This document shows positions 692 to 17,717 of a stretch of DNA of 64,000 nucleotides, one piece after another. The notes beneath the pieces were generated by a model that was given only the letters and a program-made list of their open reading frames with translations, did no database searches and was not told where the DNA came from. The translations under genes were made by a program, and so were the position numbers. Positions within the stretch are counted from its first letter, which is position 1. Each line of letters begins with the position of its first letter. Location of the stretch: positions 224,001 through 288,000 of the forward strand of contig OZ252100.1 in NCBI GenBank assembly GCA_965248435.1, read 5' to 3'. Origin of the DNA: Candidatus Latescibacterota bacterium (GTDB taxonomy: Bacteria > Latescibacterota > UBA2968 > GCA-2709665).

Positions 692-895
692 TAGTACCTC
701 AAAAAAGGGTTTTAGTTGGAGCATTTCGCTGGCTAATAATAGCATTGGAATGCCCAGGATCCATCCAAAAACTGTGGTGCCATCATAGTTTCTTCGCTGG
801 AATTTCTATGGTTGCGAACAGGAAAAGGTTGACTTTTATAATAATTATATAAATATTATAGTAATAAAGCGGATCTTCAGAACCAGGAGGCAAGA

Positions 896-1564: not shown

Positions 1565-1954
1565 GGGGGCACAGCAGCATTGAGGGGGCCTGCGGGTCCT
1601 CTTGAGGGGATTCTTCTCGCGAAGATGCCGCAAAATCAACGATGTCCGCGTCTTCAATGTAGGGAGTTGTCGCAACGCGCCGGATCTCTTTCATCTTAAG
1701 GAGGATGTCGGTGATCCTGTGCCCAGCCTCTACAATGTCTGGAGCCGCTCCCGTTCAGACCCATTCGGGTTTGACTTCGCCAGAAGGATGTCCGCCATTT
1801 CCATGATTACTGTCAGCGGCTGGTTGATTTCATGGGCGGCCGCACCGGCCGTTTGGGTCAGCACCCGCAATTTCTGAACCTCGTGGTGTGCCTCTTCAGC
1901 CTGTTTGATTTGTGAGATGTCCTCGGCGATCCCGGCGATATGTCTGAATCTCAC
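1560..1954 (-). pseudogene. Remnant or frameshifted PAC-HisKA fragment
   Basis: GIAEDISQIKQAEE...AAAHEINQPLTVI (H-box) continues after a 1-nt shift at ~1735 as IVEAGHRITDILLKMKEIRRVATTPY..IVDF; N-terminus absent; end approximate. Confidence 0.6.
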
Positions 1955-2100
1955 AAGTTTACATAATGTATCTTATACTCCCTTTCAAGATGTGCCGCCA
2001 CGGGGCCGAATAAACCCCAACATCTTGTGTGCCAGAAATATAGACCAACGCCGTTTTTAAGTCAAGCACGTTTCCGTAACCGCGCCCGAATCAACCAGCG

Positions 2101-2340
2101 TTACGCGAGCTCCTCCAGCGAGGTTTCCGTCGGGGCGGTGGCTTTCGGTTTCGCTGCTGGGGTTCCGGGAATCGGAGAGCTTTCTTCCCACGTCGGATTA
2201 TCGCGGAGAAAACTCTGTGCTGACATACGGTACACTGTTCCATCGTCACAGACAACGATTGTCCACCCGTGTTGGTCCGTAGCGAGCCCGACTGGCTTTC
2301 TCATTTTGCCTCCTCCTATGGGTAGGATGACACTACGCAA
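2101..2340 (-). CDS. Small hypothetical protein (likely start ATG ~2304)
   Basis: ORF with AGGAGG upstream of MRKPVGLATDQHGWTIVVCDDGTVY...WEESSPIPGT. Confidence 0.5.
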   Translation of the reverse strand: MRSVILPIGGGKMRKPVGLATDQHGWTIVVCDDGTVYRMSAQSFLRDNPTWEESSPIPGTPAAKPKATAPTETSLEELA

Positions 2341-2373
2341 AAAAATTGTGGTTGGTTCGGTGCCGAGTGCTTT

Positions 2374-2598
2374 TTATCTCTTGGGTAGGTGGACGATGTC
2401 GCCCACGATGAGAAACCTTTCACCTTTCTGAAAATCAAGACTCATAGTAGGCTTCAGTTCAGCTCCCCTCGCCCAAATGTGGATACCGGCTTCGCCGCCA
2501 TCGCATTGGTATGTTACTCCGGGGTTTCCTTCACCGAAGCACTGTTCGAAGCTACCATTTGTCTGAATCCTCTCGCACCTAATGATTTCATGGTTCAC
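2374..2598 (-). CDS. Small hypothetical protein
   Basis: 74-aa ORF with AAAGGAG RBS before GTG. Confidence 0.45.
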   Translation of the reverse strand: MNHEIIRCERIQTNGSFEQCFGEGNPGVTYQCDGGEAGIHIWARGAELKPTMSLDFQKGERFLIVGDIVHLPKR

Positions 2599-2617
2599 AG
2601 CAGACTCCTTTCAGGGT

Positions 2618-2653
2618 AAAAGAAAAGGAGGGCCCTCTACTTGAGGGCCCTCC
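2618..2653 (-). terminator. Intrinsic terminator, minus strand
   Basis: GGAGGGCCCTC-aagta-GAGGGCCCTCC followed by TTTTCTTTT on the minus strand. Confidence 0.75.
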
Positions 2654-3144
2654 CAACCTCAGTTGCTTAGAATGTAGGTCGAATCCCCATCCCCGTCAAG
2701 GGGCTAGATTCACCCGGTATTCCCCTGCTTTTCCGTGAACTCACCTATGCCTGCGAGGTTGAACCTTGACAAGGATGGCCTCCTGTTCTAGATTCGTTTC
2801 AGAACGTCTGTGATGCCCCCAGGGATAACGACCCGGGGTCCCAGCTTGCGATAAAGACGTAACGGAGTAGCCGTACACTCCCGCCAGCGGGAATGCAGAC
2901 GACCGGGTTGCCACTGCATTTGGCGGCTTAAGAGTCTGCCGACCGAAGGGACCTGGGCAACCTTGATGGGGATTCGTCGAACGCGGCTGAGTAGAGAGGC
3001 CGCCCGATGAACGATCGGACAGGACCCAAGGCAACTCTACGGTTTGGGCTTGCTCGATGCTCTGAACCTACGGCCGTAGGTGTCAGGGCGAAATTGGACC
3101 TCCGAATGCTTTCAAATGGTTCGGGACCGGTCCCGAACTTAATC

Positions 3145-3249
3145 ATGGGAATTATCACAATGATTAGGTTCGAAATCCGGGTCAAGGTGAAGGGAAACTC
3201 AGTCGTCAAGTTGCTATTGGCGATTACAGCAGCCCTCTCGTTGGCCTAA
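3145..3249 (+). CDS. Candidate 29-34 aa hydrophobic peptide (type I toxin-like)
   Basis: (MGIIT)MIRFEIRVKVKGNSVVKLLLAITAALSLA*; stop lies 6 nt before the terminator; no clear SD. Confidence 0.35.
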   Translation: MGIITMIRFEIRVKVKGNSVVKLLLAITAALSLA

Positions 3250-3255
3250 AATGCC

Positions 3256-3293
3256 GGACGGCTGATCGTGCAGATCGGCCGTCCCTTTCTTTG
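3256..3293 (+). terminator. Intrinsic terminator, plus strand
   Basis: GGACGGCTGATC-gtgca-GATCGGCCGTCC-CTTTCTTTG. Confidence 0.7.
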
Positions 3294-3345
3294 TTCCCTA
3301 CTCGGTTTCCCTTGATCTGAGCAGCTCATTGCGCAGTGTCCCCTA

Positions 3346-4020
3346 CTACAATGAGAGCATTTCCAATTCCAGTTTGGCTGTCCTTGCGTGCGACGTGTTT
3401 GAGTAGGTCTTTGTGATTCTCTTCAGAAGAAGGGCCTGTTTCTCCAAATCTCCGGCCAACCCGGAACACCTGGCAGCGTGCCTGAGGGCCAGCGGCGCAT
3501 AGGGCGAAGATTGATATGCATCCGCATAGGCGACGTAACTGGTAATCGCACCTGAGTAATCTTCCCGTTCCTCAAGGCAGGCGGCCACACCTGAAGTAGC
3601 CCCATATCCCAACGCGCCCCCATCGCCATAGGCGGCCAGGTATGTTTCATAGGCGGCCTGTGCCTCGGGAAATCGACCCAGTTCGAAGTAAAGATTTCCG
3701 AGTATGATCGTGGCGTGACCAGCCTCGGGGTTTCCTTTGTATTCAGCCGCGATGCTCTCTGCCTGCAGGATCGCCTCCCCCGTCTTTCCCTGATAGAGCG
3801 CGATCCGGACTTCACCGAACGCATCTATGACTTCATTCGCCTGTGTTTCAGATCGCTGTTGGAACAACGTAGCAATCAGGATGATGACCAGAACCGCCGC
3901 AGCGACCGCCAGGAGTTTAACATACTCCTTTTGGATGTAGCCCCAGATCTTCAGGGCCCAGATCAAGAATTCATCCTGTTTGATCTCTTTTCTGGTCAGT
4001 CGCTTTCTTGCTCTTTGCAT
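3346..4020 (-). CDS. Membrane-anchored TPR protein (YfgM-like)
   Basis: RKRLTRKEIKQDEF N-term, single TM helix, TPR repeats (LGNLYFELGRFPEAQAAYE). Confidence 0.8.
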   Translation of the reverse strand: MQRARKRLTRKEIKQDEFLIWALKIWGYIQKEYVKLLAVAAAVLVIILIATLFQQRSETQANEVIDAFGEVRIALYQGKTGEAILQAESIAAEYKGNPEAGHATIILGNLYFELGRFPEAQAAYETYLAAYGDGGALGYGATSGVAACLEEREDYSGAITSYVAYADAYQSSPYAPLALRHAARCSGLAGDLEKQALLLKRITKTYSNTSHARTAKLELEMLSL

Positions 4021-4169
4021 TTGTGTTGGCCCCTGATCATTGTGTGGCTTCCGCTAGAAGCGTTTATTTTTGTGCTAGTTAGGCTCAATATAGAAAAAAC
4101 CGACAGGGGTGGCAAGGTAAAACAGCCACGGGAAAAGAGTTTCTCTACTTGACGCCTTTCTGGGATAGA

Positions 4170-4203
4170 AAAACCCCCGGGCCATTCGGATAGCCCGGGG
4201 GGA
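4170..4203 (-). terminator. Terminator downstream of flagellin 1
   Basis: CCCCCGGGC...GCCCGGGGG stem with A-run on + (U-run on -). Confidence 0.65.
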
Positions 4204-4230
4204 AGCGACCAGCGGTCTTTGGAAAAGATG

Positions 4231-5427
4231 CTACTGAAGCAGTGTGAGCGCGTTCTGCGGGACTGCGTTTGCCTGCGCAAGCAATGCCGTGCTGGACTGC
4301 ACGAGAATTTGATTGCGTGTGAAATCTGAGACCTCTTCCGCGACATCCGTGTCCCGGATGATAGACTCAGAGGCCTGCATGTTCTCGATAGACACGTTGT
4401 TGTTTGCGATCGTGTGTTCAAGTCTGTTTTGCTGGGCCCCGAGGTCTCCCCTCGTCCGGGAGACGATGTCAATCGACAGGTCCAGTGCGGAAATGGCGGC
4501 GCGGGCCCCAAGCAATGTGCTTAAAGATTGACCACTCAGATTCAACGTTGTGCCGCTCGCACTCAGGTCGTTGATATTGAGCTCTACCCGATCTACGACC
4601 TGGGCGTCCGGGCCGACCTGGATACTCCCCCCGACACCTTGATCCACGACGAGTACGCGCCCGTCCAGGTCTCCGTCCCGGTAGCCGTCCGATGCCGGGT
4701 TTGCGCCGGCGGCGGCTCTTCGACCAGACAAGACCAGCTGAATTCCAAGCCTGTCGAAATTCGCGACAACCGACGAACCGGACGCAACCACCCCACCCAG
4801 CGCGTCATTATCCAGCGCCGTCCCGATGTCTATGGTTTGAGAGGCGATCCCGTTGCCGAGTGTAATTTCATTGTCCGCGGTACTGGAGTCGATGAAAACG
4901 TAGGTTCCGGCCTCTGCCGCGGTCAGATTGACATCGACAACCCCGGTTGTTGTAGACGCGGTCGCGCTAGAGACGTCAACATCTTTATTGACCGTGTTTC
5001 CAAAGCCTTTCAATATGGTGTTGTCATTGTAGCTCGTGGAACTCGCGATCCTGTCGATCTCCGTGACCAGCTGAACGAATTCCGCATTGATGGCGTCCCG
5101 GTTGTTGTCATTGACCGTCGAGGACGCAGACTGCACAGCCAGTGTCCGCATCCTGATCAGCATGTCGCTGACTTCGTTCAGCGCCCCCTCAGCCGTCTGG
5201 ATCAGGTTGGACCCCTGCTCTGCGTTCCGGGTCCCCTGGACCAGCCCGCCGATTTGTGCGCGGAAGCCCTCAGATACGGTGAGCCCGGAGGGGTCATCTG
5301 CACCGCGGTTGATACGAAGACCAGAAGATAGCCTCTCTAGATTCGTTCCCAGCCCACGGCTGTTGATACCGAGGTGTCGCTGGGAATTCATGGCCATAAT
5401 GTTGTGGTTTACGATCAACGCCGACAT
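4231..5427 (-). CDS. fliC: Flagellin (paralog 1)
   Basis: LERLSSGLRINRGADDPSGL...QTAEGAL N-term; RGDLGAQQNRL...IRDTDVAEE...LLAQAN C-term; AAGGAGG RBS. Confidence 0.96.
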   Translation of the reverse strand: MSALIVNHNIMAMNSQRHLGINSRGLGTNLERLSSGLRINRGADDPSGLTVSEGFRAQIGGLVQGTRNAEQGSNLIQTAEGALNEVSDMLIRMRTLAVQSASSTVNDNNRDAINAEFVQLVTEIDRIASSTSYNDNTILKGFGNTVNKDVDVSSATASTTTGVVDVNLTAAEAGTYVFIDSSTADNEITLGNGIASQTIDIGTALDNDALGGVVASGSSVVANFDRLGIQLVLSGRRAAAGANPASDGYRDGDLDGRVLVVDQGVGGSIQVGPDAQVVDRVELNINDLSASGTTLNLSGQSLSTLLGARAAISALDLSIDIVSRTRGDLGAQQNRLEHTIANNNVSIENMQASESIIRDTDVAEEVSDFTRNQILVQSSTALLAQANAVPQNALTLLQ

Positions 5428-5520
5428 GCCCAACCTCCTTGTGGGGGGCCTTAGACTACCAGTGTGTGCATCCGTGCTCAGGTCGTCAGTGTATCAAGTG
5501 ATACCAGTTCGTTTGTTTTA

Positions 5521-5548
5521 CTATCGGTCTATCCCTCTTAGTCCTTTA
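5521..5548 (-). promoter_or_regulatory. Sigma28 (FliA)-type promoter of flagellin 1
   Basis: TAAA-N16-ACCGATAG vs consensus TAAA-N15-GCCGATAA. Confidence 0.65.
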
Positions 5549-5637
5549 GCAGAATTTTACTTTACGTCGGAGCTTGAATTGGCTACTCTTTTGGTATAGT
5601 CCTCGAATCTCCAAATTTATGATGGATCTAATATAAT

Positions 5638-6768
5638 ATGGCCGATTCAATGGATTTGCCGCTTGCAAAGGGAGCCTCCTTAGAAGAGATTCTGGATGAG
5701 TTCACCATAGAATCAGCCTCCGGGGATCTCTGGGCGGGCCTCTCTGGGGACCGGATCAAGTGCTACGCCTGCGGTCATCGATGCAACATACCCCCGGGAC
5801 GCAGGGGAATCTGCAAGGTTCGTTTCAACCGGGATGGCAAATTGCGGGTCCCGTGGGGATATGTTGGCGGTTTCCAATGTGACCCAACGGAGAAAAAGCC
5901 CTTTTTCCACGTCCATCCAGGGTCTAACACTTTGACTTTTGGTATGTTAGGCTGTGATCTGCACTGTTCTTATTGCCAGAATTGGCTGACTTCGCAGGCG
6001 CTCAGGGATTCCGCTGCCGTCTCTGCCCCACGTGAAATCTCTGCAGAAACGCTGATTTCAAAGGGGGTCCGGCTTGACCCCGTAATGGTGGCCAGCTCCT
6101 ACAACGAGCCGTTGATCACATCCGAATGGGCGGTTGAGGTCTTCAGGCACGCAAGAACGGCAGGCATCAAAACGGCCTTCGTGTCGAATGGAAACGCCAC
6201 GCCCGAGGTCCTGGACTACCTCAGACCCTGGACCGATTGCTACAAAATCGACCTCAAGACGATGTCGGATCGCAACTACAGAAAGCTGGGCGGTGTTCTT
6301 AAGAACGTGCTGGACACGATCAAGATGGTTTATGAGCGAGGGTTTTGGATGGAGATCGTAACCCTCCTCGTACCGGATTGGAACAGCTCTGAAGCGGAAT
6401 TGCGAGACGCGGCGCAGTTTCTCGGATCGATTTCTCCGGAGATTCCCTGGCACGTCACCGCCTTTCATAAGGATTACAAGATGACGGAGCCGGATAATGC
6501 ATCAGCCAAACTCCTTGTCCGGGCGGCCGAAATCGGGAAGGAGGCCGGTCTCAGCTATGTCTATGCGGGCAACCTTCCAGGGCAGGTTGGGGCATTTGAG
6601 AACACCTGGTGTCCGGGTTGCGATGGGCTTCTCGTCCAGCGAACCGGATTTTCGGTCGGACAGGTCAGGATCGGGGAGGATGGGTGCTGCCCGGACTGCG
6701 GCCGAATCACACCTGGGTTCTGGGGCAGGGTTGAGCGGAAGGGAGACGGATCTGTAAGGGCGCTTTGA
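5638..6768 (+). CDS. amrS: AmmeMemoRadiSam system radical SAM enzyme
   Basis: C..C.H.C.I..G..G.C.VR.N, DP.EKKP.FH, GCDLHCSYCQNW, PWHVTAFH, YVYAGN. Confidence 0.88.
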   Translation: MADSMDLPLAKGASLEEILDEFTIESASGDLWAGLSGDRIKCYACGHRCNIPPGRRGICKVRFNRDGKLRVPWGYVGGFQCDPTEKKPFFHVHPGSNTLTFGMLGCDLHCSYCQNWLTSQALRDSAAVSAPREISAETLISKGVRLDPVMVASSYNEPLITSEWAVEVFRHARTAGIKTAFVSNGNATPEVLDYLRPWTDCYKIDLKTMSDRNYRKLGGVLKNVLDTIKMVYERGFWMEIVTLLVPDWNSSEAELRDAAQFLGSISPEIPWHVTAFHKDYKMTEPDNASAKLLVRAAEIGKEAGLSYVYAGNLPGQVGAFENTWCPGCDGLLVQRTGFSVGQVRIGEDGCCPDCGRITPGFWGRVERKGDGSVRAL

Positions 6769-6794
6769 GCCAACACCTTCCATATAAAGAATAA

Positions 6795-6838
6795 GGAAGG
6801 GGGCCTCATCATCACCAAGAGGCCCCCTTCCCTTTTTC
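6795..6838. terminator. Terminator between convergent genes
   Basis: GGAAGGGGGCCTC...GAGGCCCCCTTCC-CTTTTT. Confidence 0.7.
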
Positions 6839-6854
6839 CTGAGATGTTTCTTCT

Positions 6855-7697
6855 TTAGCCTGCAGATGTTTCATTCAATGCGTCGACCGCTCCCTGCAAG
6901 AAATCGTGTGCCTGAACGGCGAGTTCGTCGATTTCCTCTTCGCCCCTGGACTGGGTCCCATGAAGCCTTTCGACCATCACGGGACCTGAAAATCGGTTCA
7001 TTTTGAGAAGCCGGAGGATTCTGACGAAATCAACGCTCCCCTGGCCTGGAACAGGGAAGTCTTCCTCCCCCTTCTGGCCACGATGATCGGTGGCACACAG
7101 GGCCCCGAGATGTGGAAGCACGTGAAGGATGTCCACTTCGGGGCTCAGACCCTGTAAGAACCGCACCGTTCCTGGGTCATAGCAGGATTCCATCCAGCGA
7201 GAACCGACCTTGCTCAGCGTAGCCCTCAGAACGGGTCCGTGCGCCGTGTTCCCGGTGTGAGATTTGAGCAAGATCTTGACATTGTTCTCCTCCGCATAGG
7301 GAAGAATTTGAGACATCCGGCTAAGGAATTGTGCCTCCAGGGAGGCTGCTTCCTCCGGATCACTCTCTGTCGGGGTCCCATCCGTCAACAAAAGCCCAAT
7401 TTCCAGCAGCTGGGCCTGATCTATCCTTTTCTTGAAGTCTTCTACGCCTGTCTCCCCTGTCCAGTTCGCATACAAGATGACGGGCTTGAGCGAAAGGGCG
7501 TCCAGCTTGATCTGGATCTCCCTGGCGCCGTCCTGGCCTCCCCCCAAGGACTGAAACTCGTCCCCTTCGTTGCTAGAACCCAGACCCACGTATTCGAAGC
7601 CGGCTGACTTGATCCCATCAAGGGCGCGGTCGATCCCGAACGAAGCCCAGGGCGAGGTAAAACAACCGATTTTCCAATCCATCTCAAATGTTCCCAC
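6855..7697 (-). CDS. Sugar phosphate isomerase/epimerase (xylose isomerase-like TIM barrel)
   Basis: AGFEYVGL, YDPG, PGQGSVDFVRILRLL..FSGPVMVE. Confidence 0.8.
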   Translation of the reverse strand: MGTFEMDWKIGCFTSPWASFGIDRALDGIKSAGFEYVGLGSSNEGDEFQSLGGGQDGAREIQIKLDALSLKPVILYANWTGETGVEDFKKRIDQAQLLEIGLLLTDGTPTESDPEEAASLEAQFLSRMSQILPYAEENNVKILLKSHTGNTAHGPVLRATLSKVGSRWMESCYDPGTVRFLQGLSPEVDILHVLPHLGALCATDHRGQKGEEDFPVPGQGSVDFVRILRLLKMNRFSGPVMVERLHGTQSRGEEEIDELAVQAHDFLQGAVDALNETSAG

Positions 7698-7791
7698 CTG
7701 AAAGGTGTCGTACTCTCAACAGAAGTGACGAAGTATAATCCGCCCGGGGGTAATTGTCAAGGAGCGCTTGGCAGAATTTTCGAGATAGTGT

Positions 7792-7819
7792 TCAAGAATC
7801 GCTCAAGCGCCGCCGATAT
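7792..7819 (+). promoter_or_regulatory. Sigma28-type promoter of flagellin 2
   Basis: TCAA-N16-GCCGATAT. Confidence 0.65.
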
Positions 7820-7899
7820 ACCTCGTATGCCCGGTAAACACCCGGATGTGGGAGTCCGGGTTAAGATCGGGAACACCACTTACTTGCCAGTTGTGACAC

Positions 7900-9090
7900 A
7901 TGCCAATCCGTATCAACAACAACATTCCTGCGATTAACTCGCAGCGAATCCTGAATATCACAAACCGGGATGTCAAACTCCGCGTGGAGCGACTCTCCTC
8001 CGGTTTGAGGGTCAACCGAGCGGCAGATGACGCAGCCGGTTTAAGCGTATCAGAAGGACTGCGTGGAGAAATCAGTGGATTTGCTCAGGGCATCAGAAAC
8101 TCTGAACAGGCCATTGACCTGGTGCAGACTGCCGAGGGCGCTCTCAGCGAGATGAGCGCCATCATACTCAGGATGCGTGAACTAGCGGTGCAATCTGCCT
8201 CGTCTACAGTGAATGACCAGAATCGGGAAGCGATCAACGCGGAATTTGCCCAGCTGGTAACCGAAATCGACCGGATCGCTCAGGTGACGAGCTACAACAA
8301 TACCGCTTTGCTGGCTGGGTTCGGAAATACGGTCGATGAAGCTACTTCTTCGGCGGTCACATCCAGTGCAACGACAGGCGTGGCCGATATTCAGATCAGT
8401 GGTGCGGGGGTTGGGAATTACACGTTCATAGATTCTTCTACGGGCGACAACGAAATCACATTGGGTAACGGGGTTGCATCTCAAACAATCGATGTCGGAC
8501 GAGCCCTGGACAACGATGGAGTTAGCGGCGTGGTGGCATCGGGCAGCGCAATCATCGCCAACTTCGACCGCCTCGGAATCCAGTTGACGTTAAGTGGGCA
8601 GCGCGCTGCTCAGGGTGTGACCCCGGCAACCGACGGATATCGCGATGGAGACCTGGATTCGGAAACCCTGGTTGTCAGCCAGGGCGCAGGCGGCGCCTTC
8701 CAGGTAGGGCCCGACGATACAGCGGTGCACCGGTTGCAGCTCAGCATATCAAGTATGCGTACATCTGACACGACTCTGAACCTGAGTGGATTATCGATAT
8801 CGTCACGCGCCTCTGCTCAAGGCGCCATCGGCTCGATCGATAACTCCATCAACCAGCTCAGCCGCACACGGGGTGACCTTGGGGCTATTCAGAATCGCCT
8901 CTCGACAAACATCAAGGCCAACGGGGTGATGCTGGAAAACGACCAGACTTCAGAATCGACGATTCGAGATGCAGACATTGCAGAGGAGGTTACTTCGTTC
9001 GCGCGAGGCCAGATTCTCATCCAGTCGGGTCTTGCAGCCTTCGCGCAGGCCAATATCACAGCCGCAACGGGTTTATCACTGCTCTCATAA
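7900..9090 (+). CDS. fliC: Flagellin (paralog 2)
   Basis: ERLSSGLRVNRAADDAAGL, QTAEGAL, RGDLGAIQNRL, IRDADIAEE; central region clearly homologous to paralog 1. Confidence 0.96.
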   Translation: MPIRINNNIPAINSQRILNITNRDVKLRVERLSSGLRVNRAADDAAGLSVSEGLRGEISGFAQGIRNSEQAIDLVQTAEGALSEMSAIILRMRELAVQSASSTVNDQNREAINAEFAQLVTEIDRIAQVTSYNNTALLAGFGNTVDEATSSAVTSSATTGVADIQISGAGVGNYTFIDSSTGDNEITLGNGVASQTIDVGRALDNDGVSGVVASGSAIIANFDRLGIQLTLSGQRAAQGVTPATDGYRDGDLDSETLVVSQGAGGAFQVGPDDTAVHRLQLSISSMRTSDTTLNLSGLSISSRASAQGAIGSIDNSINQLSRTRGDLGAIQNRLSTNIKANGVMLENDQTSESTIRDADIAEEVTSFARGQILIQSGLAAFAQANITAATGLSLLS

Positions 9091-9169
9091 GCGCGTTTTC
9101 GATTGTCGGTAGAGATGGTTGGAATCAGGGATGAAACGACCGCCATCTTTTGATTGCCGCCCGAGCCCC

Positions 9170-9190
9170 AAGGAAGGGGCTTTTTTATTG
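9170..9190 (+). terminator. Probable terminator after flagellin 2 (coordinates approximate)
   Basis: AGCCCC-aaggaa-GGGGCT-TTTTT around 9163-9187. Confidence 0.5.
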
Positions 9191-9265
9191 CCACTTGACA
9201 CACCTCGGACATGCTGCATATTCTTAGCAGGAGATGAGGGTCTTCAAATTCCGTGGAGGGCGGAC

Positions 9266-9490
9266 ATGGTCCAGCAAATACGTGTGAAGTTCGGAACAAC
9301 GGTAGAGGAGTTGAAGAAACAGATTCTGAATCTGTCCGAGCAGTGTGGTTGGGATAAATCGCGGGTCCGCTTCGTTATCGACATGGACTCGTGTACTGTA
9401 AAAGAAACCGCCTATGCCGTCTCAGACAGTTCTTCAGAGCTTCCTCTCCATCCGGGCGGGCCGGACGCTGTTCAAAGCCTGGCGTCCTGA
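9266..9490 (+). CDS. Small hypothetical protein
   Basis: GGAGG RBS then MVQQIRVKFGTTVEELKKQILNL...; TTGACA..CATATT promoter-like motif upstream. Confidence 0.55.
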   Translation: MVQQIRVKFGTTVEELKKQILNLSEQCGWDKSRVRFVIDMDSCTVKETAYAVSDSSSELPLHPGGPDAVQSLAS

Positions 9491-9500
9491 ATCATTTTGC

Positions 9501-9527
9501 TAAACCGCCCTATCATTCTGCCGATAA
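9501..9527 (+). promoter_or_regulatory. Consensus sigma28 promoter with no downstream + strand CDS
   Basis: TAAA-ccgccctatcattct(15)-GCCGATAA, exact match to the FliA consensus. Confidence 0.7.
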
Positions 9528-9529
9528 AA

Positions 9530-9603
9530 TAACTGGCAAGTGTGTGTCGGTGTTTCTATTTCCCCGAGCGTCGATCTCCCAAGGATCGGCGCTTTATTTT
9601 TTC
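9530..9603 (+). ncRNA. Candidate sigma28-dependent sRNA complementary to both flagellin leaders
   Basis: Promoter 9501-9527; terminator AGCGTCGATC/GATCGGCGCT-TTATTTTTT (9567-9602); 11-nt perfect complement to 7882-7892. Confidence 0.55.
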
Positions 9604-9614
9604 TCTCTGTCCGC

Positions 9615-10763
9615 CTACCAATTCGTGAAGGATCCGTCCTCCCGAAACCAGTGCGGGCCCTCCCAGAACTCGAAGGACTCCTTTGCCATATCCTCATTGA
9701 ACTCCACGCCGAGTCCGGGGCCTTCCGGCAAGGGATAAGAACTGCCTTTCAGCCGATGCTGCACCGGGAAGAAGTCATCACCGAACGTAAATTCGTGCTT
9801 CCGGTCTTCAAGCCAGGCGAAGTTGGCGACTGCTGCGCCAAAGTGGATGTGTGCTGCTGTGCTGATCGGTCCAAGGGGATTGTGCGGCATCATATCAATG
9901 TAATGGGCCTCGCTCCAGCCGGCGACCTTCATTCCCTCTGTAAATCCCCCGACGTTGCAGATGTCGATTCTCGCGAAATTGGTCAGCCCCTTCTCGATGT
10001 AGGGCAAGAAGGCCCATTTGCTCGAAAACTCCTCCCCTATCGCCATGGGCGTCCGGGTCATTTGACGCAACGTCGCATAGGCATCCGGAGTTTCGCAACG
10101 AATCGGTTCTTCCAGAAAGTCGAGTGTCCCCTCTGGCATCCGCTGACAGAATGAGGCGGCCTCGGCGACACTCAATCGGTGGTGATAGTCGATTCCGAGC
10201 ACAGGAGCCAACCCCACTTCCTCCCGGACGGCAGCCATCCATTCCGCGGATAGAGCGATGGACTCGCGGGGCTCGAAGCGGTTTTCGTTGTCCTGCGCTC
10301 CGGGGTGCGCAGGCATGAAGCGAATCACGCTCCAGCCTTCCTTGATCAGATCCACTGCCTCTTTGATCACTTCGGGGCCTTCAAGGGGTTTATCGGAGGT
10401 TACAAAGCATGGCACGGCGTGGCGCTGGGCACCGCCAAGCAGTTGATAGACTGGCACATCCAGCTTCCTGGCAACCAGGTCGTGCAGGGCGATGTCGATC
10501 GCGGAAATGGCTCCAGTCAGGATCCGGCCCCCTTCGAAATACTGGCCCCGGTAGAGTTCCTGCCAGAGGGCCCCTATGCGCATCGGATCCTTGCCAAGCA
10601 GAAATTCTCTGAAATGTTTGACTGCTCCGGCCACTGCCAGTTCTCTGCCAGACACCCCGGCTTCTCCCCACCCGTAGTAGCCTTCATCCGTTTCCACCTT
10701 CAAAACAAACTGATTTCTCTTACCCACCCATACGGGATATGACTTGATCTCTGTGATCTTCAT
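9615..10763 (-). CDS. Mandelate racemase/acid-sugar (galactonate-like) dehydratase, enolase superfamily
   Basis: VETDEGYYGWGE, SAIDIALHDL, IDYHHR, FLEEP, IGEE, PHNP, PGLGVE. Confidence 0.9.
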   Translation of the reverse strand: MKITEIKSYPVWVGKRNQFVLKVETDEGYYGWGEAGVSGRELAVAGAVKHFREFLLGKDPMRIGALWQELYRGQYFEGGRILTGAISAIDIALHDLVARKLDVPVYQLLGGAQRHAVPCFVTSDKPLEGPEVIKEAVDLIKEGWSVIRFMPAHPGAQDNENRFEPRESIALSAEWMAAVREEVGLAPVLGIDYHHRLSVAEAASFCQRMPEGTLDFLEEPIRCETPDAYATLRQMTRTPMAIGEEFSSKWAFLPYIEKGLTNFARIDICNVGGFTEGMKVAGWSEAHYIDMMPHNPLGPISTAAHIHFGAAVANFAWLEDRKHEFTFGDDFFPVQHRLKGSSYPLPEGPGLGVEFNEDMAKESFEFWEGPHWFREDGSFTNW

Positions 10764-10801
10764 TTCTCCTCCTCGCGTTCGCGTCTTTTAAGTTGACGAG
10801 C

Positions 10802-11944
10802 TCACCAGTTTGTGTATGTGCCATCCCGCCGATGCCAGTGAGTGAGCTCCCAGAACTCGTAGGATTGTTTCTGGGCCTCCTCTTCGTTGAATTCTACACC
10901 GAGCCCGGCCCCCTTGGGCAACGGGAATTCCGTTCCTGCCAGCTCGGGCTGGACGGGAAAGAGTTTACGATCGAATTTGCGAGCGAAGGTCTCGAGCCAG
11001 GCAAAGTTGGGGACAGCGGCGCCAAAGTGGATGCCCGCAGCTGTGCTGATCGGTCCCAGCGGGTTGTGGGGCATCATATTTATGTAGTGGGCTTCGCTCC
11101 ATCCGGCCACCTTCATCGCCTCCGTAAATCCTCCGACGTTGCAGATGTCTACCCTTGCGAAGTTTGTCAAACCTTTCTCGATGTAGGGTAAGAAAGCCCA
11201 TTTGCTCGAAAACTCCTCCCCTATCGCCATTGGAAGCTCGGTCATTTGACGCAAGGCAGCGTAGGCATCTGGGGTCTCACAACGGATCGGCTCTTCAAGA
11301 AAGTCTATCGTCCCGGCGGGGAGTCGCTGACAGAAGGAGGCGGCCTCGGCAACATTCAACCGATGGTGGTAGTCGATTCCAAGCACGACGGACGGCCCGA
11401 TCTCCTCACGAACCGCCACAGCCCACTCCGCAATCAGGGCGATCGATTCCCTGGGCTCGAACAGTCCGCTGCCCTCCACGTAGTCCCGGGGCTCCGTGGT
11501 GTATCGGATGATGTTCCACCCCTCCTGGATGAGACGTTTGGTATCGCTTACTGCTTCTGGACCATTCAGAGGCTTCGACGTGATGAAGCAAGGCACAGAA
11601 TCACGCTGGGCTCCACCCAGAAGTTGGTAAACCGGAACATCCAATTTCTTCGCGACAAGGTCGTGAAGCGCAATATCGATCGCAGAAATGGCCCCAGTCA
11701 GGATTCGGCCGCCCTCGAAGTACTGGCCCCGGTATAACTCCTGACAGAGGGCCCCTATGCGCATCGGATCCTTCCCGATGAGAAATTCTCTGAAGTGCTT
11801 GACGGCGCCCACTACACCCAGCTCACGGCTGCATACACCGGCCTCGCCCCAGCCATAATATCCCTCATCCGTCTCCACTTTCAGGACAAGCTGGTTCTGG
11901 TCGCCAACGCGAACGGGATAGGTCTTCACGTCCGTAATTTTCAT
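10802..11944 (-). CDS. Mandelate racemase/acid-sugar dehydratase, tandem paralog
   Basis: Same motifs as the neighbour, long identical peptide stretches. Confidence 0.9.
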   Translation of the reverse strand: MKITDVKTYPVRVGDQNQLVLKVETDEGYYGWGEAGVCSRELGVVGAVKHFREFLIGKDPMRIGALCQELYRGQYFEGGRILTGAISAIDIALHDLVAKKLDVPVYQLLGGAQRDSVPCFITSKPLNGPEAVSDTKRLIQEGWNIIRYTTEPRDYVEGSGLFEPRESIALIAEWAVAVREEIGPSVVLGIDYHHRLNVAEAASFCQRLPAGTIDFLEEPIRCETPDAYAALRQMTELPMAIGEEFSSKWAFLPYIEKGLTNFARVDICNVGGFTEAMKVAGWSEAHYINMMPHNPLGPISTAAGIHFGAAVPNFAWLETFARKFDRKLFPVQPELAGTEFPLPKGAGLGVEFNEEEAQKQSYEFWELTHWHRRDGTYTNW

Positions 11945-12120
11945 GTCTCCCCCAATTTCTGGCCTTTCGGTTTGTCAGAAGAATAACACGGGGGGGCCGG
12001 GAACAGAAATGGAATCATCTTGCCCTTGGTGCAAGGCTCGTACACTCAAAAATAGAAAAAGAGCCACATCATTCTCGATGTGGCCCGGTCCTGGAGAGAT
12101 GGGATCGTGAATCTCCCCCT

Positions 12121-12558
12121 CTAACTCCCTTTGTCTTGACCTGTCTTGCTGAAAATTCGTGTATCTGCCCCATAACGGCCTGAGCCGCATAGAAAGATAC
12201 AGAGGGCAGCCGACAAATACACAAGCGCCAGTTCCTTTTCACGAAGGGGGTCGTGCAGGTGCTGACCGAATGCTGCGACAGACATCGTGCACAGGATAAA
12301 GAAAGAAGCCGGGCGAGTGGCCAGGCCGAGGATGAGTAAGATGCCGCCGACAAATTCGGAAAGACCGGCGGCCCAGGCGAAGACTTCTGGCAAGGGGAAT
12401 CCCAGATTCGCCACACCCTCGATAAACCCTGGCATGCGGCCTCCTAAAACCTTTCCAAAACCGTGATATGCCATTCCCGATCCGAAGGTAACACGCAGGA
12501 TCAGCAGTCCCCCATCGATCCAGCGCACCTCGGTCAGCCAGTAACTGATTCGCTTCAT
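12121..12558 (-). CDS. DoxX family membrane protein
   Basis: LLILRVTFG..MAYHGFGK, EFVGGILLILGLATRPA, GRYGAD. Confidence 0.9.
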   Translation of the reverse strand: MKRISYWLTEVRWIDGGLLILRVTFGSGMAYHGFGKVLGGRMPGFIEGVANLGFPLPEVFAWAAGLSEFVGGILLILGLATRPASFFILCTMSVAAFGQHLHDPLREKELALVYLSAALCIFLCGSGRYGADTRIFSKTGQDKGS

Positions 12559-12609
12559 CCCGGTCCTCTCGTGTCGTAATCGTGAATCGGCCTACCGAAG
12601 TTCAGTAAG

Positions 12610-13818
12610 TCACTCTGGCCGAACGACAAGAACCCGGTCGTCGTTGGCGGCAGGAACCCCGCGGCCGTCACGGTTGCTCGTCGCCAGGTAGACTTCGCCT
12701 TCGGGGCCCACAAGGACGTCCCGCAGGCGACCGAATTCGTCTTGAAAGTGGATCTCCTCCGCCTGGACAGCCGTTCCGTCATCGGAAAGCCGCAGCTGGA
12801 TCAACGCGGCGAACTTCAAGGTGGTAAAAAGCAGGCTGCCATTCCAGGCCGAAATCAGGTCGGAATCGTAGAAATCCGCCCCGGAAGGCGCGATGGTGGG
12901 TGTCCAGGCTGCTATCGGTTCGGCAACATTGTTCTCCGCGCAAAAGGTTTGTTCATTCAGTCCGGAGACGTCGTTATCGCAAAAGCCGTGGACATCTGGC
13001 CAGCCATAATTCCGACCGATCTCTACTATGTTGACCTCGTCATTGTCACGGGGACCGTGCTCGGTGATATAAGGCATTCGGGTTTCTGGATGGAAGACGA
13101 GACCCTGAGGATTGCGATGACCGTAAGAGAATATGAGCGAACCGAAAGGATTGTCAAATGCAGGGGTCCCATCCAGATTGAGACGGAGCACCTTGCCGGC
13201 CAACGAGGAAAGATTCTGGGCAAGCGCGGCCTCGCTCGCGTCGCCTGTCGTCATGTAGAGCAAACCATCCGGGCCGACGGCGAGCCTGGAACCATCGTGA
13301 TTGGAAGCACCGGGGATGTCCTCGAGAAGGGTCTCGGGGTTGGAAAGACTGACACCATTATAGGTCATCCGGATCAGTCGATTTCGGATTCCGCTCCCGC
13401 TCTGATAGGAATATGCCAGATAAACAAAGGGCTGCGAACCAAATTCGGGATGAAAGGCCATGCCCATCAGACCGCTTTCGCTCAGTTCGAAGGCATCGAC
13501 TTGCCCGACTTGTGTCCTCTCACCATTGGCGGGATCAATCCTGGAAATGGCCCCTTTCCGTTCTGTTACCCAGACCATCTGGTCCGGCCCCCAGGCAAGA
13601 TCCCAGGGGGTATCCAGTCCGGAACTCAGCGTCGATACGCTCAAGGACTGGGGTGTCTGCGGAGGGGCCTCCTCACCTTCGGTCGAGTCGCCTGAATCGC
13701 TCGAGGATCCACCGGGCCCCAATGGATCAGTCGGGACGTTCCCACATCCCGAAGGGAGCCCAAGCAGCAATGAAAGCACCCAGATTATTGATCTGACATT
13801 CGTGATTAGGCTCTTCAT
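12610..13818 (-). CDS. PQQ-dependent sugar (glucose/sorbosone) dehydrogenase, probable lipoprotein
   Basis: PWDLAWGPD, ESGLMGMAFHP, HDGSRL, YGHRNPQG, EHGP..DEVN, GRLRDV..GPEG. Confidence 0.9.
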   Translation of the reverse strand: MKSLITNVRSIIWVLSLLLGLPSGCGNVPTDPLGPGGSSSDSGDSTEGEEAPPQTPQSLSVSTLSSGLDTPWDLAWGPDQMVWVTERKGAISRIDPANGERTQVGQVDAFELSESGLMGMAFHPEFGSQPFVYLAYSYQSGSGIRNRLIRMTYNGVSLSNPETLLEDIPGASNHDGSRLAVGPDGLLYMTTGDASEAALAQNLSSLAGKVLRLNLDGTPAFDNPFGSLIFSYGHRNPQGLVFHPETRMPYITEHGPRDNDEVNIVEIGRNYGWPDVHGFCDNDVSGLNEQTFCAENNVAEPIAAWTPTIAPSGADFYDSDLISAWNGSLLFTTLKFAALIQLRLSDDGTAVQAEEIHFQDEFGRLRDVLVGPEGEVYLATSNRDGRGVPAANDDRVLVVRPE

Positions 13819-13879
13819 GGCTACTTTCAGATACGACTGTCCTGCCCAGAAGTTGCGGAAGAAATCGTAGCCTAGGGAA

Positions 13880-15454
13880 TTAGTTCAGATTCGAAGGGAG
13901 AGATTCTCTAAGAACCCTCTTCAGTACCTGTCCCTTCGTGCCTTTGGGCAGAGTTTCCTGGAAGGCGATTCTACGAGGATATTTGTAGGCAGCCAATCTA
14001 TTCTTACAATGCGCGATCAATTCCTCCGCTGTTGCCATCGTCTCCGAACTCATTACAACAACAGCTACGACCTCTTCCCCACAAGCCGCATCTGAAATCC
14101 CGATGACGGCTGACTCTGTCACCGCAGGATGGGAAATGAGGACGTCCTCGACCTCACGGGGATACACACTATACCCGTTGCGTAAGATTGTATCCTTCTT
14201 TCGATCGATTACGAAGAGGTGGTCCCCGGCGTCCAGGTAGCCGATGTCGCCCGTGTGAAACCATCCTGCACGCATCACCGCGGATGTGGTTTCTGGGTCC
14301 CTGAAATAGCCCTTCATAACTGGATCTCCAAGCACAACGATTTCTCCCGGTGTGCCACGTGGAAGTTCCGTTTCGTGATCGTCGACGATTCGAACTTTCA
14401 CTCCAGATATTGGTTTGCCGACACTGCCAGGCTTTCCTGGCGTCCCTGCCGTGCAAGAGGCGACCACGGGCGAAGTCTCGGAAAGGCCATACCCCACCAA
14501 AATCTCCGCATCGAACTCCTTTCTAAATGCTTCCACCGATCCTTCTGAAATCGGCGCTCCTCCCACGAGACAATACAGAAGCGTCGAGGGGACCTCCTTG
14601 TGGGATCTTGCATAGTCAAGAAGGGAGACGATCATGGAGGGAACAGCGGCAGCAAGGGTGATTCGATCCTCGTGGATTTTCCGAACAGCAAGTTCTGCCG
14701 AGAAACGGGGAAGGAGGGAAACCGCGGCTCCATGAAACAGTGACGCGTTCTGCAGGCAGGTCTGCCCAAAACTGTGAGAAAACGGCAGGGCTGCCAGTAC
14801 GACGTGGCCGGGACCCCAGAATTCCTTCACGCCGCTGCTTTGGATCGTCTCCTCTGAAACCCACCGGGCATTGGAATAGAGGTTGAAATGGGTGATTTCA
14901 GCTCCTTTCGGCTTCCCGGTGGTGCCGGACGTATAGAAGATAACTGCCGTATCGTTTGGCTTTGTGTCCTCCACATCCAAACTCTCTGCGGATGTCTCTA
15001 TGGAAGCGTCGAAATCGAGCGAACCATCGATCGCCCGGGATCGAGAGGATCCTATCGTAAAGAGACGCCGACACGGCTCCGCACGAGCAAACCCTTCAAG
15101 ACCCGCTTCGACCACGCCTTCCCAGAGAACCAGACCTGTGCTGCCGGACCCCGTGAGTATCGACGCAACCTCTTCCCCCGTGAGCAGGGCGTTGAGTGGA
15201 ACAACGATCCCTCCTACCGAGAGGATGCCAAAATAGGCAACCGTAAATTGAGGGATATTCGGCGCCATAATCGCGACTCGGTCGCCGATACCGATGCCGG
15301 TCTTTCTAAGCAGAGTTGCAAATCTCCGACACCTCGATTCCAACTGGCCGTATGAGACGGACTCGCCATCAGAGAGGAGCGCCGGCTCCTGCGAGTATTC
15401 CAGCACAGAGTTGAAAAGGATAGAGGCCAGGTTCAAGACCGACGACCCGCTCAT
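13880..15454 (-). CDS. Long-chain fatty-acid--CoA ligase (AMP-binding)
   Basis: YTSGTTGKPKG, GYGLSET, WFHTGDIG, DRKKD. Confidence 0.92.
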   Translation of the reverse strand: MSGSSVLNLASILFNSVLEYSQEPALLSDGESVSYGQLESRCRRFATLLRKTGIGIGDRVAIMAPNIPQFTVAYFGILSVGGIVVPLNALLTGEEVASILTGSGSTGLVLWEGVVEAGLEGFARAEPCRRLFTIGSSRSRAIDGSLDFDASIETSAESLDVEDTKPNDTAVIFYTSGTTGKPKGAEITHFNLYSNARWVSEETIQSSGVKEFWGPGHVVLAALPFSHSFGQTCLQNASLFHGAAVSLLPRFSAELAVRKIHEDRITLAAAVPSMIVSLLDYARSHKEVPSTLLYCLVGGAPISEGSVEAFRKEFDAEILVGYGLSETSPVVASCTAGTPGKPGSVGKPISGVKVRIVDDHETELPRGTPGEIVVLGDPVMKGYFRDPETTSAVMRAGWFHTGDIGYLDAGDHLFVIDRKKDTILRNGYSVYPREVEDVLISHPAVTESAVIGISDAACGEEVVAVVVMSSETMATAEELIAHCKNRLAAYKYPRRIAFQETLPKGTKGQVLKRVLRESLPSNLN

Positions 15455-15466
15455 CTCTCCTCTCCA

Positions 15467-16210
15467 TCAATCCATCCAGATTCCGCCGTTGACATCCAGG
15501 ACCTCTCCGGTGATATAATCAGATTCGCTTGACGCCAGGAAGAGGGCCGCGTTCGCGACCTCCTCCGGCTCTCCCCTTCGATGCTTAAGGACGATGGATG
15601 CATCGCCAGAAGGCGGATGAGCACGGGTCATTTCCGTCTTGATGATGCCGGGGGAGAGAGCATTTACGCAGATCCCGTGCGGGCCCAGTTCCTTCGCCAA
15701 GGAGAAGGTGTATGCGGACACTGCGGCCTTCGATGCAGCGTAAGGGGGACTTGCGGAGACTCCGCCGGTCTTCGCCGCCATGGAGGAAAGATTGATGATC
15801 TTTCCAGACCCTCTCTCGATCATCTCGTCCATGACGGCCCGGCAGCAAAGAAAGACACCTTTGATGTTCACGGCGAGCATTCGGTCCCACTCCTCTTCTG
15901 GACAGTCCGCCGTGGTATACCGGCTGTGGATCCCGGCATTGTTTATGAGGATGTCGATTCGAGAAAAGGCATTTCGGGTCATCGCCACCATCTCGCGCAC
16001 ACTGTCCCCGCTGGAGACATCCACGCTCATTCCAATGGAACGCCCGCCTTCACTCTGGATGGCATCGGCAACCGACAGGGCCCCCTCTGAATTCAGGTCT
16101 GCCACGCCCACGGAGGCGCCCTCACTTGCAAATCGTTCTGCAATGGCCCTTCCGATTCCCTGGGCAGCTCCGGTGACCAGCGCAACCTTGTCCTTAAGCC
16201 GGTCCATCAC
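15467..16210 (-). CDS. SDR family oxidoreductase (FabG-like)
   Basis: TGAAQGIG, NNAG, YAASK, ITGEVLDVNGG. Confidence 0.92.
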   Translation of the reverse strand: MMDRLKDKVALVTGAAQGIGRAIAERFASEGASVGVADLNSEGALSVADAIQSEGGRSIGMSVDVSSGDSVREMVAMTRNAFSRIDILINNAGIHSRYTTADCPEEEWDRMLAVNIKGVFLCCRAVMDEMIERGSGKIINLSSMAAKTGGVSASPPYAASKAAVSAYTFSLAKELGPHGICVNALSPGIIKTEMTRAHPPSGDASIVLKHRRGEPEEVANAALFLASSESDYITGEVLDVNGGIWMD

Positions 16211-16248
16211 TCACCTGATCTATTAATGCCCGACGATGACCACATTTC

Positions 16249-16989
16249 TCAGTCCATCCAGATTCCACCGTTGATATCAAGAACTTCTCCGGTGATGTAA
16301 TCCGATTCGCTTGAAGCCAGGAAGAGGACCGCGTTCGCGACCTCTTCAGGCTCCCCCTTCCTCTTGTTCAGTACGACCGATTCCAGTACGGAGGGGGGAT
16401 GATTTCGGGTCATCTCGGTGTTGATGATGCCCGGGCATACTGCATTTACGCAGATTCCGTGCGGGCCCAGTTCCTTGGCCAGGGAGAAGGTATAGGCCGA
16501 AACAGCCGCCTTGGAGGCGACATATGCGGGGCTGGCGGCGAGCCCACCCGTCTTTGCGGCCAGGGAGGAAAAGTTGATGATCTTGCCCGATCCGCGTTCG
16601 ATCATTCCAGCCATAACGGCTCGACAGCAGAGGAAGACACCCTTCAAGTTTATCGCAAGCACACGGTCCCACTCTTCCTCCGGACAGTTGGCAGTTGTAT
16701 ATTGCTTGAACACGCCGGCGCTGTTGACGAGAATATCGACCCTAGAAAAGCGCTCTATTGTGTGAGCCACCATTTCGCGTACGCTATCGCCTCTCGTTAC
16801 ATCCACTCCAAAGCCAAGGGCTTCGGCACCTGTATGCTGAATGTCCTTGGCAACCGTATGGGCACCTTCATAGTTGATATCGGCTACAGCGACCGCCGCG
16901 CCTTCGCGAGCAAAGCGTTCGGAGATGGCCTTTCCAAGCCCCTGGGCCCCGCCTGTAATCAGTGCGACCTGTTCTTCCAATCTGCCCAT
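16249..16989 (-). CDS. SDR family oxidoreductase, tandem paralog
   Basis: TGGAQGLG, YVASK, ITGEVLDINGG. Confidence 0.92.
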   Translation of the reverse strand: MGRLEEQVALITGGAQGLGKAISERFAREGAAVAVADINYEGAHTVAKDIQHTGAEALGFGVDVTRGDSVREMVAHTIERFSRVDILVNSAGVFKQYTTANCPEEEWDRVLAINLKGVFLCCRAVMAGMIERGSGKIINFSSLAAKTGGLAASPAYVASKAAVSAYTFSLAKELGPHGICVNAVCPGIINTEMTRNHPPSVLESVVLNKRKGEPEEVANAVLFLASSESDYITGEVLDINGGIWMD

Positions 16990-17262
16990 ATCGTTGACCT
17001 CTTGTACGATTTAATGGTGACTTGAAAAAGCGCGCGTAAACTAAGCGAGCCGGAATCAAAAGTCAAGCAGCTCTCCGATCCAGGTACAATTATATACTAA
17101 TCAATGACTTATACAACATACGCAGAAGTGAAAAAACGAACGGTCCTTGACCGCGGGACTTTGAAAATGTGCGTATCCTCTAGTAAATTTTTATCTTGCG
17201 CCTTATTGTCACCTGACTCTATATTATCGCCGTTCGTTTAGGCAGGAAAAGGGAGGGTTCGG

Positions 17263-17634
17263 ATGACTACGACGAAAAAGGATTTGGCTTTAAAGATATC
17301 CGAAAGGCTCGGTGTCAAGAAGCAACTGGCCTATGAAGTGGTAGACACGCTCTTTAAGGGAATGCGAGAACGTCTCATCTCTGGAGACAGAATCGAGATT
17401 CGAGGTTTCGGTGTCCTCGGTGTCAAAGATACTAAACCGAAACCTGCGGCGCGCAACCCAAGAACGGGCGAAATTGTCTACGTGCCTGCGAGGAAGAAAA
17501 GCTATTTCAAGGCAGGCGTACTCATCAAGAAGGCACTTCACGAACCTCTAGAAAACAGAGAGGAAGTGCAGAAACCTCTGGAGCCGGCGCGGGAAGGCTC
17601 CGGTGAGGTCGGAGGGAGTCCGGGCCAAACTTAG
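17263..17634 (+). CDS. Integration host factor beta/HU-family DNA-binding protein
   Basis: TKKDLA, GDRIEIRGFG, ARNPRTGE. Confidence 0.9.
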   Translation: MTTTKKDLALKISERLGVKKQLAYEVVDTLFKGMRERLISGDRIEIRGFGVLGVKDTKPKPAARNPRTGEIVYVPARKKSYFKAGVLIKKALHEPLENREEVQKPLEPAREGSGEVGGSPGQT

Positions 17635-17717
17635 TCTGATATATACCTTGAAACGCTTAGGGGGGCGCGGTCGATGCACCGCGCCCCCCTTCTATTATAG
17701 TCCTAAGATTAGAAAAA

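Follow-up and report, generated by a model that had tools for sequence, protein, structure and literature searches.

Experimental evidence for small RNAs that adjust how much flagellin is made comes exclusively from Campylobacter and a small number of cultured Proteobacteria. In Vibrio cholerae and V. parahaemolyticus, the cited accounts describe FlaX, a sigma54-dependent RNA of about 265 nt that is cut by RNase E out of flaA's 3′ UTR and stabilised by ProQ; it pairs with the flaB 5′ UTR at the ribosome-binding site and at further sites, represses translation and alters filament composition (PMC11879080; bioRxiv 10.64898/2026.08.28.747715). E. coli FliX and MotR are sigma28-dependent, and FliX, which comes from the flagellin locus, is described there as being processed from the fliC 3′ UTR, pairing inside coding sequences (fliC and the S10 operon mRNAs) and lowering both fliC mRNA and flagellin (PMC10578931). 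For Campylobacter jejuni, overexpression of the FliA-dependent CJnc170 (FlmR) is described as reducing flagellar length and motility, and CJnc230 (FlmE) as targeting flgM and a flagella-interaction regulator (PMC11187230).

The locus described here belongs to an uncultured marine bacterium of Candidatus Latescibacterota. Judged from its sequence, it would encode an sRNA of a new family, equipped with its own promoter and terminator, which under sigma28 control would repress flagellin-2 by pairing with the flagellin-2 leader; on balance, we hold this reading to be probable. Like FlaX, as far as the accounts of that RNA go, the present RNA is encoded downstream of a flagellin gene and is predicted to pair with the 5′ UTR of a flagellin paralogue. 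Unlike FlaX, it is only about 70 nt long, has its own sigma28 promoter and belongs to a genome in which neither ProQ nor Hfq was found; moreover, whereas FlaX targets a different flagellin locus, the RNA of this unrelated phylum would target the flagellin immediately upstream. With FliX and MotR as described, it shares sigma28 dependence, here deduced from the promoter motif, and would share feedback inside the flagellar regulon. FliX and MotR are Hfq-dependent. The present RNA differs from FliX in its predicted 5′ UTR pairing, in being a putative primary transcript and in the failure to find Hfq in the genome. In contrast to the 3′ UTR-derived FlaX and FliX, it is separated from flagellin-2 by a terminator (9163–9182) and by a 74-aa ORF, and its own promoter is conserved. 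CJnc170 offers a likeness as a FliA-type sRNA within the flagellar regulon, whereas CJnc230 differs in its described targets, the target here being, by prediction, a flagellin leader; neither has synteny in common with the present RNA, and both are set apart from it by their descriptions rather than by sequence. Campylobacter is not known to have Hfq, and sigma28-dependent ncRNA paralogues reportedly occur in that genus. By analogy, Vibrio FlaX is the closest functional analogue, and the RNA is best regarded as a new family that would work like the known flagellar sRNAs with an architecture of its own. The full-text literature on Latescibacter combined with sRNA, small RNA or flagellin yielded no report of such an RNA.

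The window, that is, the whole stretch of 64,000 nt analysed, contains two divergent flagellin genes, flagellin-1 (4231–5433, minus strand) and flagellin-2 (7900–9090, plus strand; Pfam Flagellin_N and Flagellin_C, ATG at 7900). An AmmeMemoRadiSam-type radical SAM enzyme (5638–6768, plus strand) is encoded between the divergent flagellins in the genome carrying the locus (G000) and in two relatives, G004 and G038; a sugar-isomerase-like gene, of the xylose-isomerase-like TIM-barrel type (6855–7697, minus strand), also lies there in two of these three. The corresponding loci of the relatives are L021:3706–5415, L021:5596–6471 and L022:7899–8975, and the G004 copy carries an intein. These genes may point to flagellin modification. 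Downstream of flagellin-2 and its terminator follow a sigma70-like site (9195–9224), the 74-aa orphan ORF (9266–9490, plus strand), which has a GGAGG ribosome site and is linked to its neighbours by synteny only, and a sigma28 (FliA)-type promoter (9501–9527, plus strand) of exact consensus, with the -35 box TAAA at 9501–9504, a 15-nt spacer and the -10 box GCCGATAA at 9520–9527. The predicted sRNA (9529–9602, plus strand) would start between 9529 and 9535 and end within a U-tract, giving a length of about 68–74 nt. It comprises an unstructured 5′ targeting region (9529–9566) and an intrinsic terminator (9566–9602) made of a 12-bp stem with a 5-nt loop (9566–9594) and a T-run to 9602. According to the annotation of the window, no plus-strand gene lies downstream of the element; the next gene, of the MR_MLE family (9615–10763, minus strand), is convergent with it.

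Homologs of the element were found in other flagellated members of the phylum. With positions 9491–9614 as query against 41 related genomes, BLAST returned clear matches in four (G004, G038, G005 and G037), including one of another genus (G004; 84% identity over 93 nt, E 2.4e-20, as against 62–65% protein identity of the flanking genes) and one of another family (G038; E 4.3e-11). A covariance model built from 8 sequences was searched over 151 genomes of the phylum; 8 genomes, every one of family f1 or f2, gave strong full-length matches (E <= 2.7e-11). Nineteen other weak matches in that scan cover the hairpin half only and were discarded, as were weak apparently full-length matches in G036 and G091, which are ordinary terminators. 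A pattern scan of metagenome contigs yielded 37 loci, among them 7 strong model matches, 5 of which were new sequences; in two metagenome runs, further contigs of other organisms match positions 9515–9608 only. Altogether, 15 distinct homologs are known from flagellated Latescibacterota genomes and metagenome contigs, with full-length model scores of 58.8–88 bits. The order of divergent flagellin-1, flagellin-2, 74-aa ORF and sRNA is constant across the loci. Flagellin_N was detected in 7 of the 41 relatives, and 5 of these 7 carry the sRNA. The other 34 lack flagellin altogether and have no sRNA either, G001 of the same genus among them. As far as searched, the family is confined to flagellated members of one Candidatus Latescibacterota order.

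Three features, its promoter, its terminator and its core, single the element out as an RNA gene that is probably expressed. The exact TAAA-N15-GCCGATAA motif occurs twice in the 11.3 M strand positions of the 5.67-Mb genome, the second copy (C1:5499910) being located upstream of a different flagellin gene, and TAAA-N15/16-GCCGATA precedes flagellin paralogues at C1:1555686, 1650316 and 5499910. A FliA ortholog is encoded in the genome (FliA_WhiG, 281.8 bits against a cut-off of 189.6). Sigma28-type motifs are also present upstream of five of the six flagellin paralogues. Base counting predicts about 0.7 exact motifs per genome by chance, which leaves room for the view that the motif is a chance match and that no separate RNA exists, the hairpin serving to terminate the small ORF and the convergent gene. 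Such a view would accommodate the position of the element between the stop codon of the ORF (9490) and the shared terminator, as well as the fact that the only RNA-library contig of the region begins upstream of the motif, at 9489. It is hardly compatible with the behaviour of the promoter among the homologs: TAAA and GCCGATA are kept at a distance of 15–16 nt in 12 of the 15, two more having a single mismatch and only G005 being degenerate, while the spacer sequence diverges; the -10 box and the invariant RNA core are 9–10 nt apart in 14 of the 15 (5 nt in G005). Furthermore, conservation of the 40 nt from promoter to hairpin exceeds that of the flanking genes, and G126 retains both promoter and RNA though the upstream small ORF is missing. 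We therefore regard the absence of a separate RNA as highly improbable.

The contig just mentioned comes from a marine RNA library. It is a single contig of 151 nt on 9489–9632 that overruns both predicted ends, gives no strand, start or end and may derive from DNA; the remaining 1.9-kb stretch has no cover in this library, which says nothing about expression of the flagellin or of the ORF.

The sequence and structure of the element agree with a non-coding RNA. Folding of the 74-nt stretch yields -23.3 kcal/mol (z -3.05), a value equalled by 3 of 200 shuffles. In the alignment of 8 sequences, the 5′ region contains 11 consecutive invariant columns, CAAGTGTGTGT, and the core CAAGUGUGUGU is invariant; the wider core, GGCAAGUGUGUGU(GU)YGGUG, which is accompanied by a UUCCCC box, is nearly invariant, yet the neighbouring proteins are just 53–65% identical. 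Over 15 sequences, 98.9% of the terminator cells are paired and 6 of the 12 pairs have changed on both sides, a degree of covariation reached by none of 500 shuffles. The sRNA contains no AUG, and the GU repeat of the core occurs as (GU)4 or (GU)5 among the homologs, a 2-nt indel that would break any frame and thus argues against coding. This change in repeat length is not compensated in the leader. In the likely source sample, one contig has an additional GT behind 9539 (within 9538–9547), at a depth of 10.5 of 68.9. Rfam 15 gave no match at E <= 1 for positions 1–20000 of the window, and nothing relevant at two other sigma28-associated loci. Taken together, these data make it very probable that the sRNA gene is real, and 9529–9602 is best described as a conserved sRNA gene of a new family whose transcript is predicted from sequence. 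The original prediction, which had been made from this one stretch of DNA, thus stands with regard to its central object: the exact motif at 9501–9527, the lack of a plus-strand gene behind it and the roughly 70 nt leading to a U-tailed terminator are all present, and the proposal that an orphan sigma28 promoter drives an sRNA is now backed by 15 homologs with conserved -35 and -10 boxes and a covarying terminator. It was likewise right in placing the RNA in a lineage unrelated to the gammaproteobacteria with known flagellar sRNAs; the lineage, Latescibacterota, is indeed distant from them. Two pairings that it had pointed out were found as well, and lead to the question of the target.

The predicted target is the 5′ UTR of flagellin-2. 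AACTGGCAAGT (9531–9541) is the exact reverse complement of ACTTGCCAGTT (7882–7892), 7 nt before the ATG at 7900, and GGTGTTTC (9549–9556) pairs with GGAACACC (7870–7877), one G-U included. By RNAduplex, nucleotides 1–40 of the sRNA lie on leader positions 7856–7895 (plus strand), a predicted binding site that ends 4 nt before the ATG. The leader is preceded by a sigma28-type promoter (7792–7818, plus strand; TCAA-N16-GCCGATAT) that is conserved in the orthologous loci and reads TCAAGATTCGNTCAAG...CCGATAT in an alignment of 8 leaders. The promoter also contains a TCAAG-N6-TCAAG direct repeat (leader region 7792–7899), and the leader a conserved 5′ element, CGUAGACCGGGAAAC.

The complementarity was evaluated by two tests. 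When the first ~40 nt of the sRNA were matched by RNAduplex with the cognate leaders of six genomes (300 shuffles each), the site in G000 reached -42.0 kcal/mol (z -4.4, 0 of 300 shuffles equal), and a second run gave -40.4 kcal/mol (z -4.9, 0 of 200). Values for the relatives were -38.1 kcal/mol in G004 (z -3.8, 0/300), -44.5 in G038 (z -3.8, 0/300), -35.5 in G144 (z -2.3, 5/300), -26.1 in G126 (z -1.1, 43/300) and -25.9 in G128 (z -1.1, 46/300). The stricter test compared the longest contiguous helix with that of dinucleotide-shuffled leaders (500 shuffles each). Helices of 12–14 bp, equalled by at most 10 of 500 shuffles, were found for five of the eight flagellin-2 leaders, counts that are not independent since the genomes are related: 12 bp in G000 (10/500) and G004 (4/500), 13 bp in G038 (7/500) and L087 (2/500), and 14 bp in L093 (0/500). 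G144 (10 bp, 43/500) and G126 (10 bp, 101/500) are marginal, and G128 (7 bp, 390/500) is at chance level. Dimer folding with intramolecular structure allowed gave net energies of -10 to -32 kcal/mol and placed the sRNA 5′ end beside the start codon in all six cognate pairs. Among the eight flagellin-family leaders of G000, that of flagellin-2 alone was significant (z -4.9, 0/200), the other seven ranging from -0.8 to +1.4. The leader site is also missing where the RNA is missing: in G036, a flagellin-2-type gene with a promoter of the same type is followed by an ordinary terminator, the model, run with filters off, finds no sRNA there, and the ACACAC..GGCCA site has disappeared from the leader, which forms duplexes with nine family sRNAs at shuffle level only (-14.7 to -25.9). 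These data make flagellin-2 a likely direct target.

The same cannot be said of flagellin-1. The original prediction had the RNA pair with both flagellin leaders and thereby set the ratio of two flagellins, citing GCACACACTGGTAGT at 5469–5455 on the minus strand, which does form a 9-bp helix, one G-U included, with the sRNA. In G000, however, this leader scores z -0.3 to -0.5, and an equal helix arises in 180 of 500 leader shuffles; of seven genomes, six have z values from +0.05 to -1.3 and one, G144, has -2.3, and in the contiguous-helix test none of the seven flagellin-1 leaders was significant (174–490 of 500 shuffles). Hence, of the double pairing, the half concerning flagellin-2 was upheld (z -4.4 to -4.9, recurring in relatives), while that concerning flagellin-1 is at chance level. 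Moreover, G000 encodes six flagellin paralogues, besides two FlgK/FlgL-like genes, and only flagellin-2 is credible as a target, so that speaking of two flagellins was incomplete. An RNA acting on both leaders is accordingly very doubtful, even though action on flagellin-2 alone would still shift flagellin ratios. Covariation between seed and leader, which the original prediction had named as a check, gave a divided answer. One pair of the UGGC/GCCA helix is C-G in five genomes, U-A in G126, which is compensatory, and C.A, hence broken and unrepaired, in G128 and L087. Comparing G000 with G004, one finds a C-to-U substitution on the sRNA side (GGUGUUUC to GGUGUUUU) and a matching G-to-A on the leader side. 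In a 6x6 cross-matrix, in which one leader had been trimmed too short, three of the six leaders were bound best by their cognate sRNA, and one was bound worst by it; a general preference for cognate over non-cognate partners is absent from the dimer energies.

A weak preference of this kind might be expected if the RNA, though real, bore its complementarity to flagellin-2 as a relic, left for instance by inverted duplication of the leader, and had another function such as binding the 74-aa protein or other RNAs. The small ORF does adjoin the RNA in 12 of 14 assessable loci, and a second sigma28-associated non-coding locus (G000:C1:2904438–2904469, on a would-be plus-strand transcript) comes close to flagellin-2 in the strength of its pairing with the sRNA (-39.9 kcal/mol). 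Nevertheless, the patches used for pairing differ by lineage: G000 relies on nt 1–12, G004 on the GGUGUUUUUAUU stretch, and G038, L087 and L093 on the GUGUGUGUCGGUG core. Such a pattern resembles maintained pairing, with turnover under selection, rather than decay, without amounting to proof. The retention of the RNA without the ORF in G126 and the absence of the leader site in G036, where the RNA is absent, also speak against a relic, which we find improbable.

The specificity of the pairing was considered on the scale of the genome by a scan in which a 7-mer-seed prefilter was followed by RNAduplex. Among 13,256 sequence windows holding a 7-nt seed, 13,254 of them non-self, the flagellin-2 site ranks 10th of the latter; nine unrelated sites outscore it, energies of -38 to -44 kcal/mol being common in this 57% GC genome, where energy by itself is a poor guide to rank. 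However, only 2 of the top 400 sites, this one included, are located at most 200 nt downstream from any of the 43 sigma28-like motifs. Perfect 11-nt complements to the sRNA 5′ region are not rare either, with 80 matches genome-wide, 28 of which are the RNA's own antisense; the expectation per 75-nt leader is ~5e-4. Complements of 12–14 nt at C1:5539905, 1905230, 4800855 and 4677838 of G000 fall in coding or otherwise unremarkable sequence and were set aside. With regard to the second non-coding locus, two sigma28-like motifs face each other there across ~315 nt without an ORF (G000:C1:2904360–2904726, L107:161–527), and in G038 its promoter together with the GGGGAUAGGGAG start is conserved to 85%. 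Comparable GGAUAGGG starts come after sigma28-like motifs at C1:1304660, 3498848 and 4229530.

If the RNA acts on flagellin-2, its most plausible mode of action would be as follows. FliA (sigma28) would transcribe both flagellin-2 and the sRNA, and the single-stranded 5′ ~40 nt of the latter would pair across positions -44 to -4 of the flagellin-2 leader, thereby occluding the ribosome-binding region and blocking 30S binding; RNase III might cleave the long duplex as well. By switching on a flagellin together with its repressor, sigma28 would establish an incoherent feed-forward loop, in which, relative to the five other flagellins, less flagellin-2 would be made or it would be made later. Given flagellin-2 as the direct target, we consider repression the fairly probable effect, inferring the direction from the position of the site. 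Alternatively, the RNA may pair with the leader and activate translation, for instance by opening an inhibitory structure or by creating a standby site. In this respect, flagellin-2 is the sole one of the six paralogues without an AAGGAGG Shine-Dalgarno sequence adjoining the start, and its orthologs have a GGAGG-like box 55–75 nt upstream of the start, which suggests an unusual mode of initiation. Vibrio FlaX, in the account cited here, both represses and activates flagellins (bioRxiv 10.64898/2026.08.28.747715). On the other hand, pairing from -44 to -4 falls within the region that the 30S subunit usually covers, or next to it. When the leader is folded by itself, the ACACAC/UGGCCA site stays largely unpaired and the start codon is not consistently sequestered, which favours repression over activation, although these folds are not conserved enough to exclude the latter. 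On this evidence, activation appears unlikely, and repression remains the reading that we prefer.

Such repression would probably have to proceed without the usual helpers. Hfq (PF17209) and ProQ (PF04352) gave no match in G000, which is 97.5% complete, under conditions where the control genomes were matched, and neither CsrA nor FliW was found in that genome. That none of the four was found agrees with an RNA that does without a chaperone and depends on long pairing. The 74-aa ORF next to the RNA is intact in 12 of the 14 assessable loci, frameshifted in G087 and absent in G126, and has 19 invariant residues among 12 sequences. It is represented by only 2 clusters in a collection of 5.8 billion proteins, has no Pfam or NCBIfam match, and its AlphaFold2 model (mean pLDDT 63.2) has no Foldseek match in the PDB at E <= 0.001. 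It is tempting to imagine the sRNA and this protein as a dedicated two-part post-transcriptional checkpoint for flagellin-2, in which the RNA would silence through ~40 nt of antisense-like pairing and the protein, which is hardly known from anywhere else, would act as its chaperone or antagonist, the pair being a functional stand-in for the CsrA-FliW partner switch; we rate this idea as speculative and rather unlikely to be correct.

Should the preferred reading, repression of flagellin-2 by an sRNA under sigma28 control, be true, Candidatus Latescibacterota would gain its first proposed regulatory sRNA. That would also mean that the same logic as in the known systems, with an RNA from a flagellin locus acting on the leader of a paralogous flagellin, arose independently in an uncultured lineage of the FCB group without known RNA chaperones. 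The 70-nt RNA and the 75-nt leader form a compact pair that could be tested in a heterologous host, and that may prove useful for the study of both chaperone-independent regulation and the control of multi-flagellin filaments.
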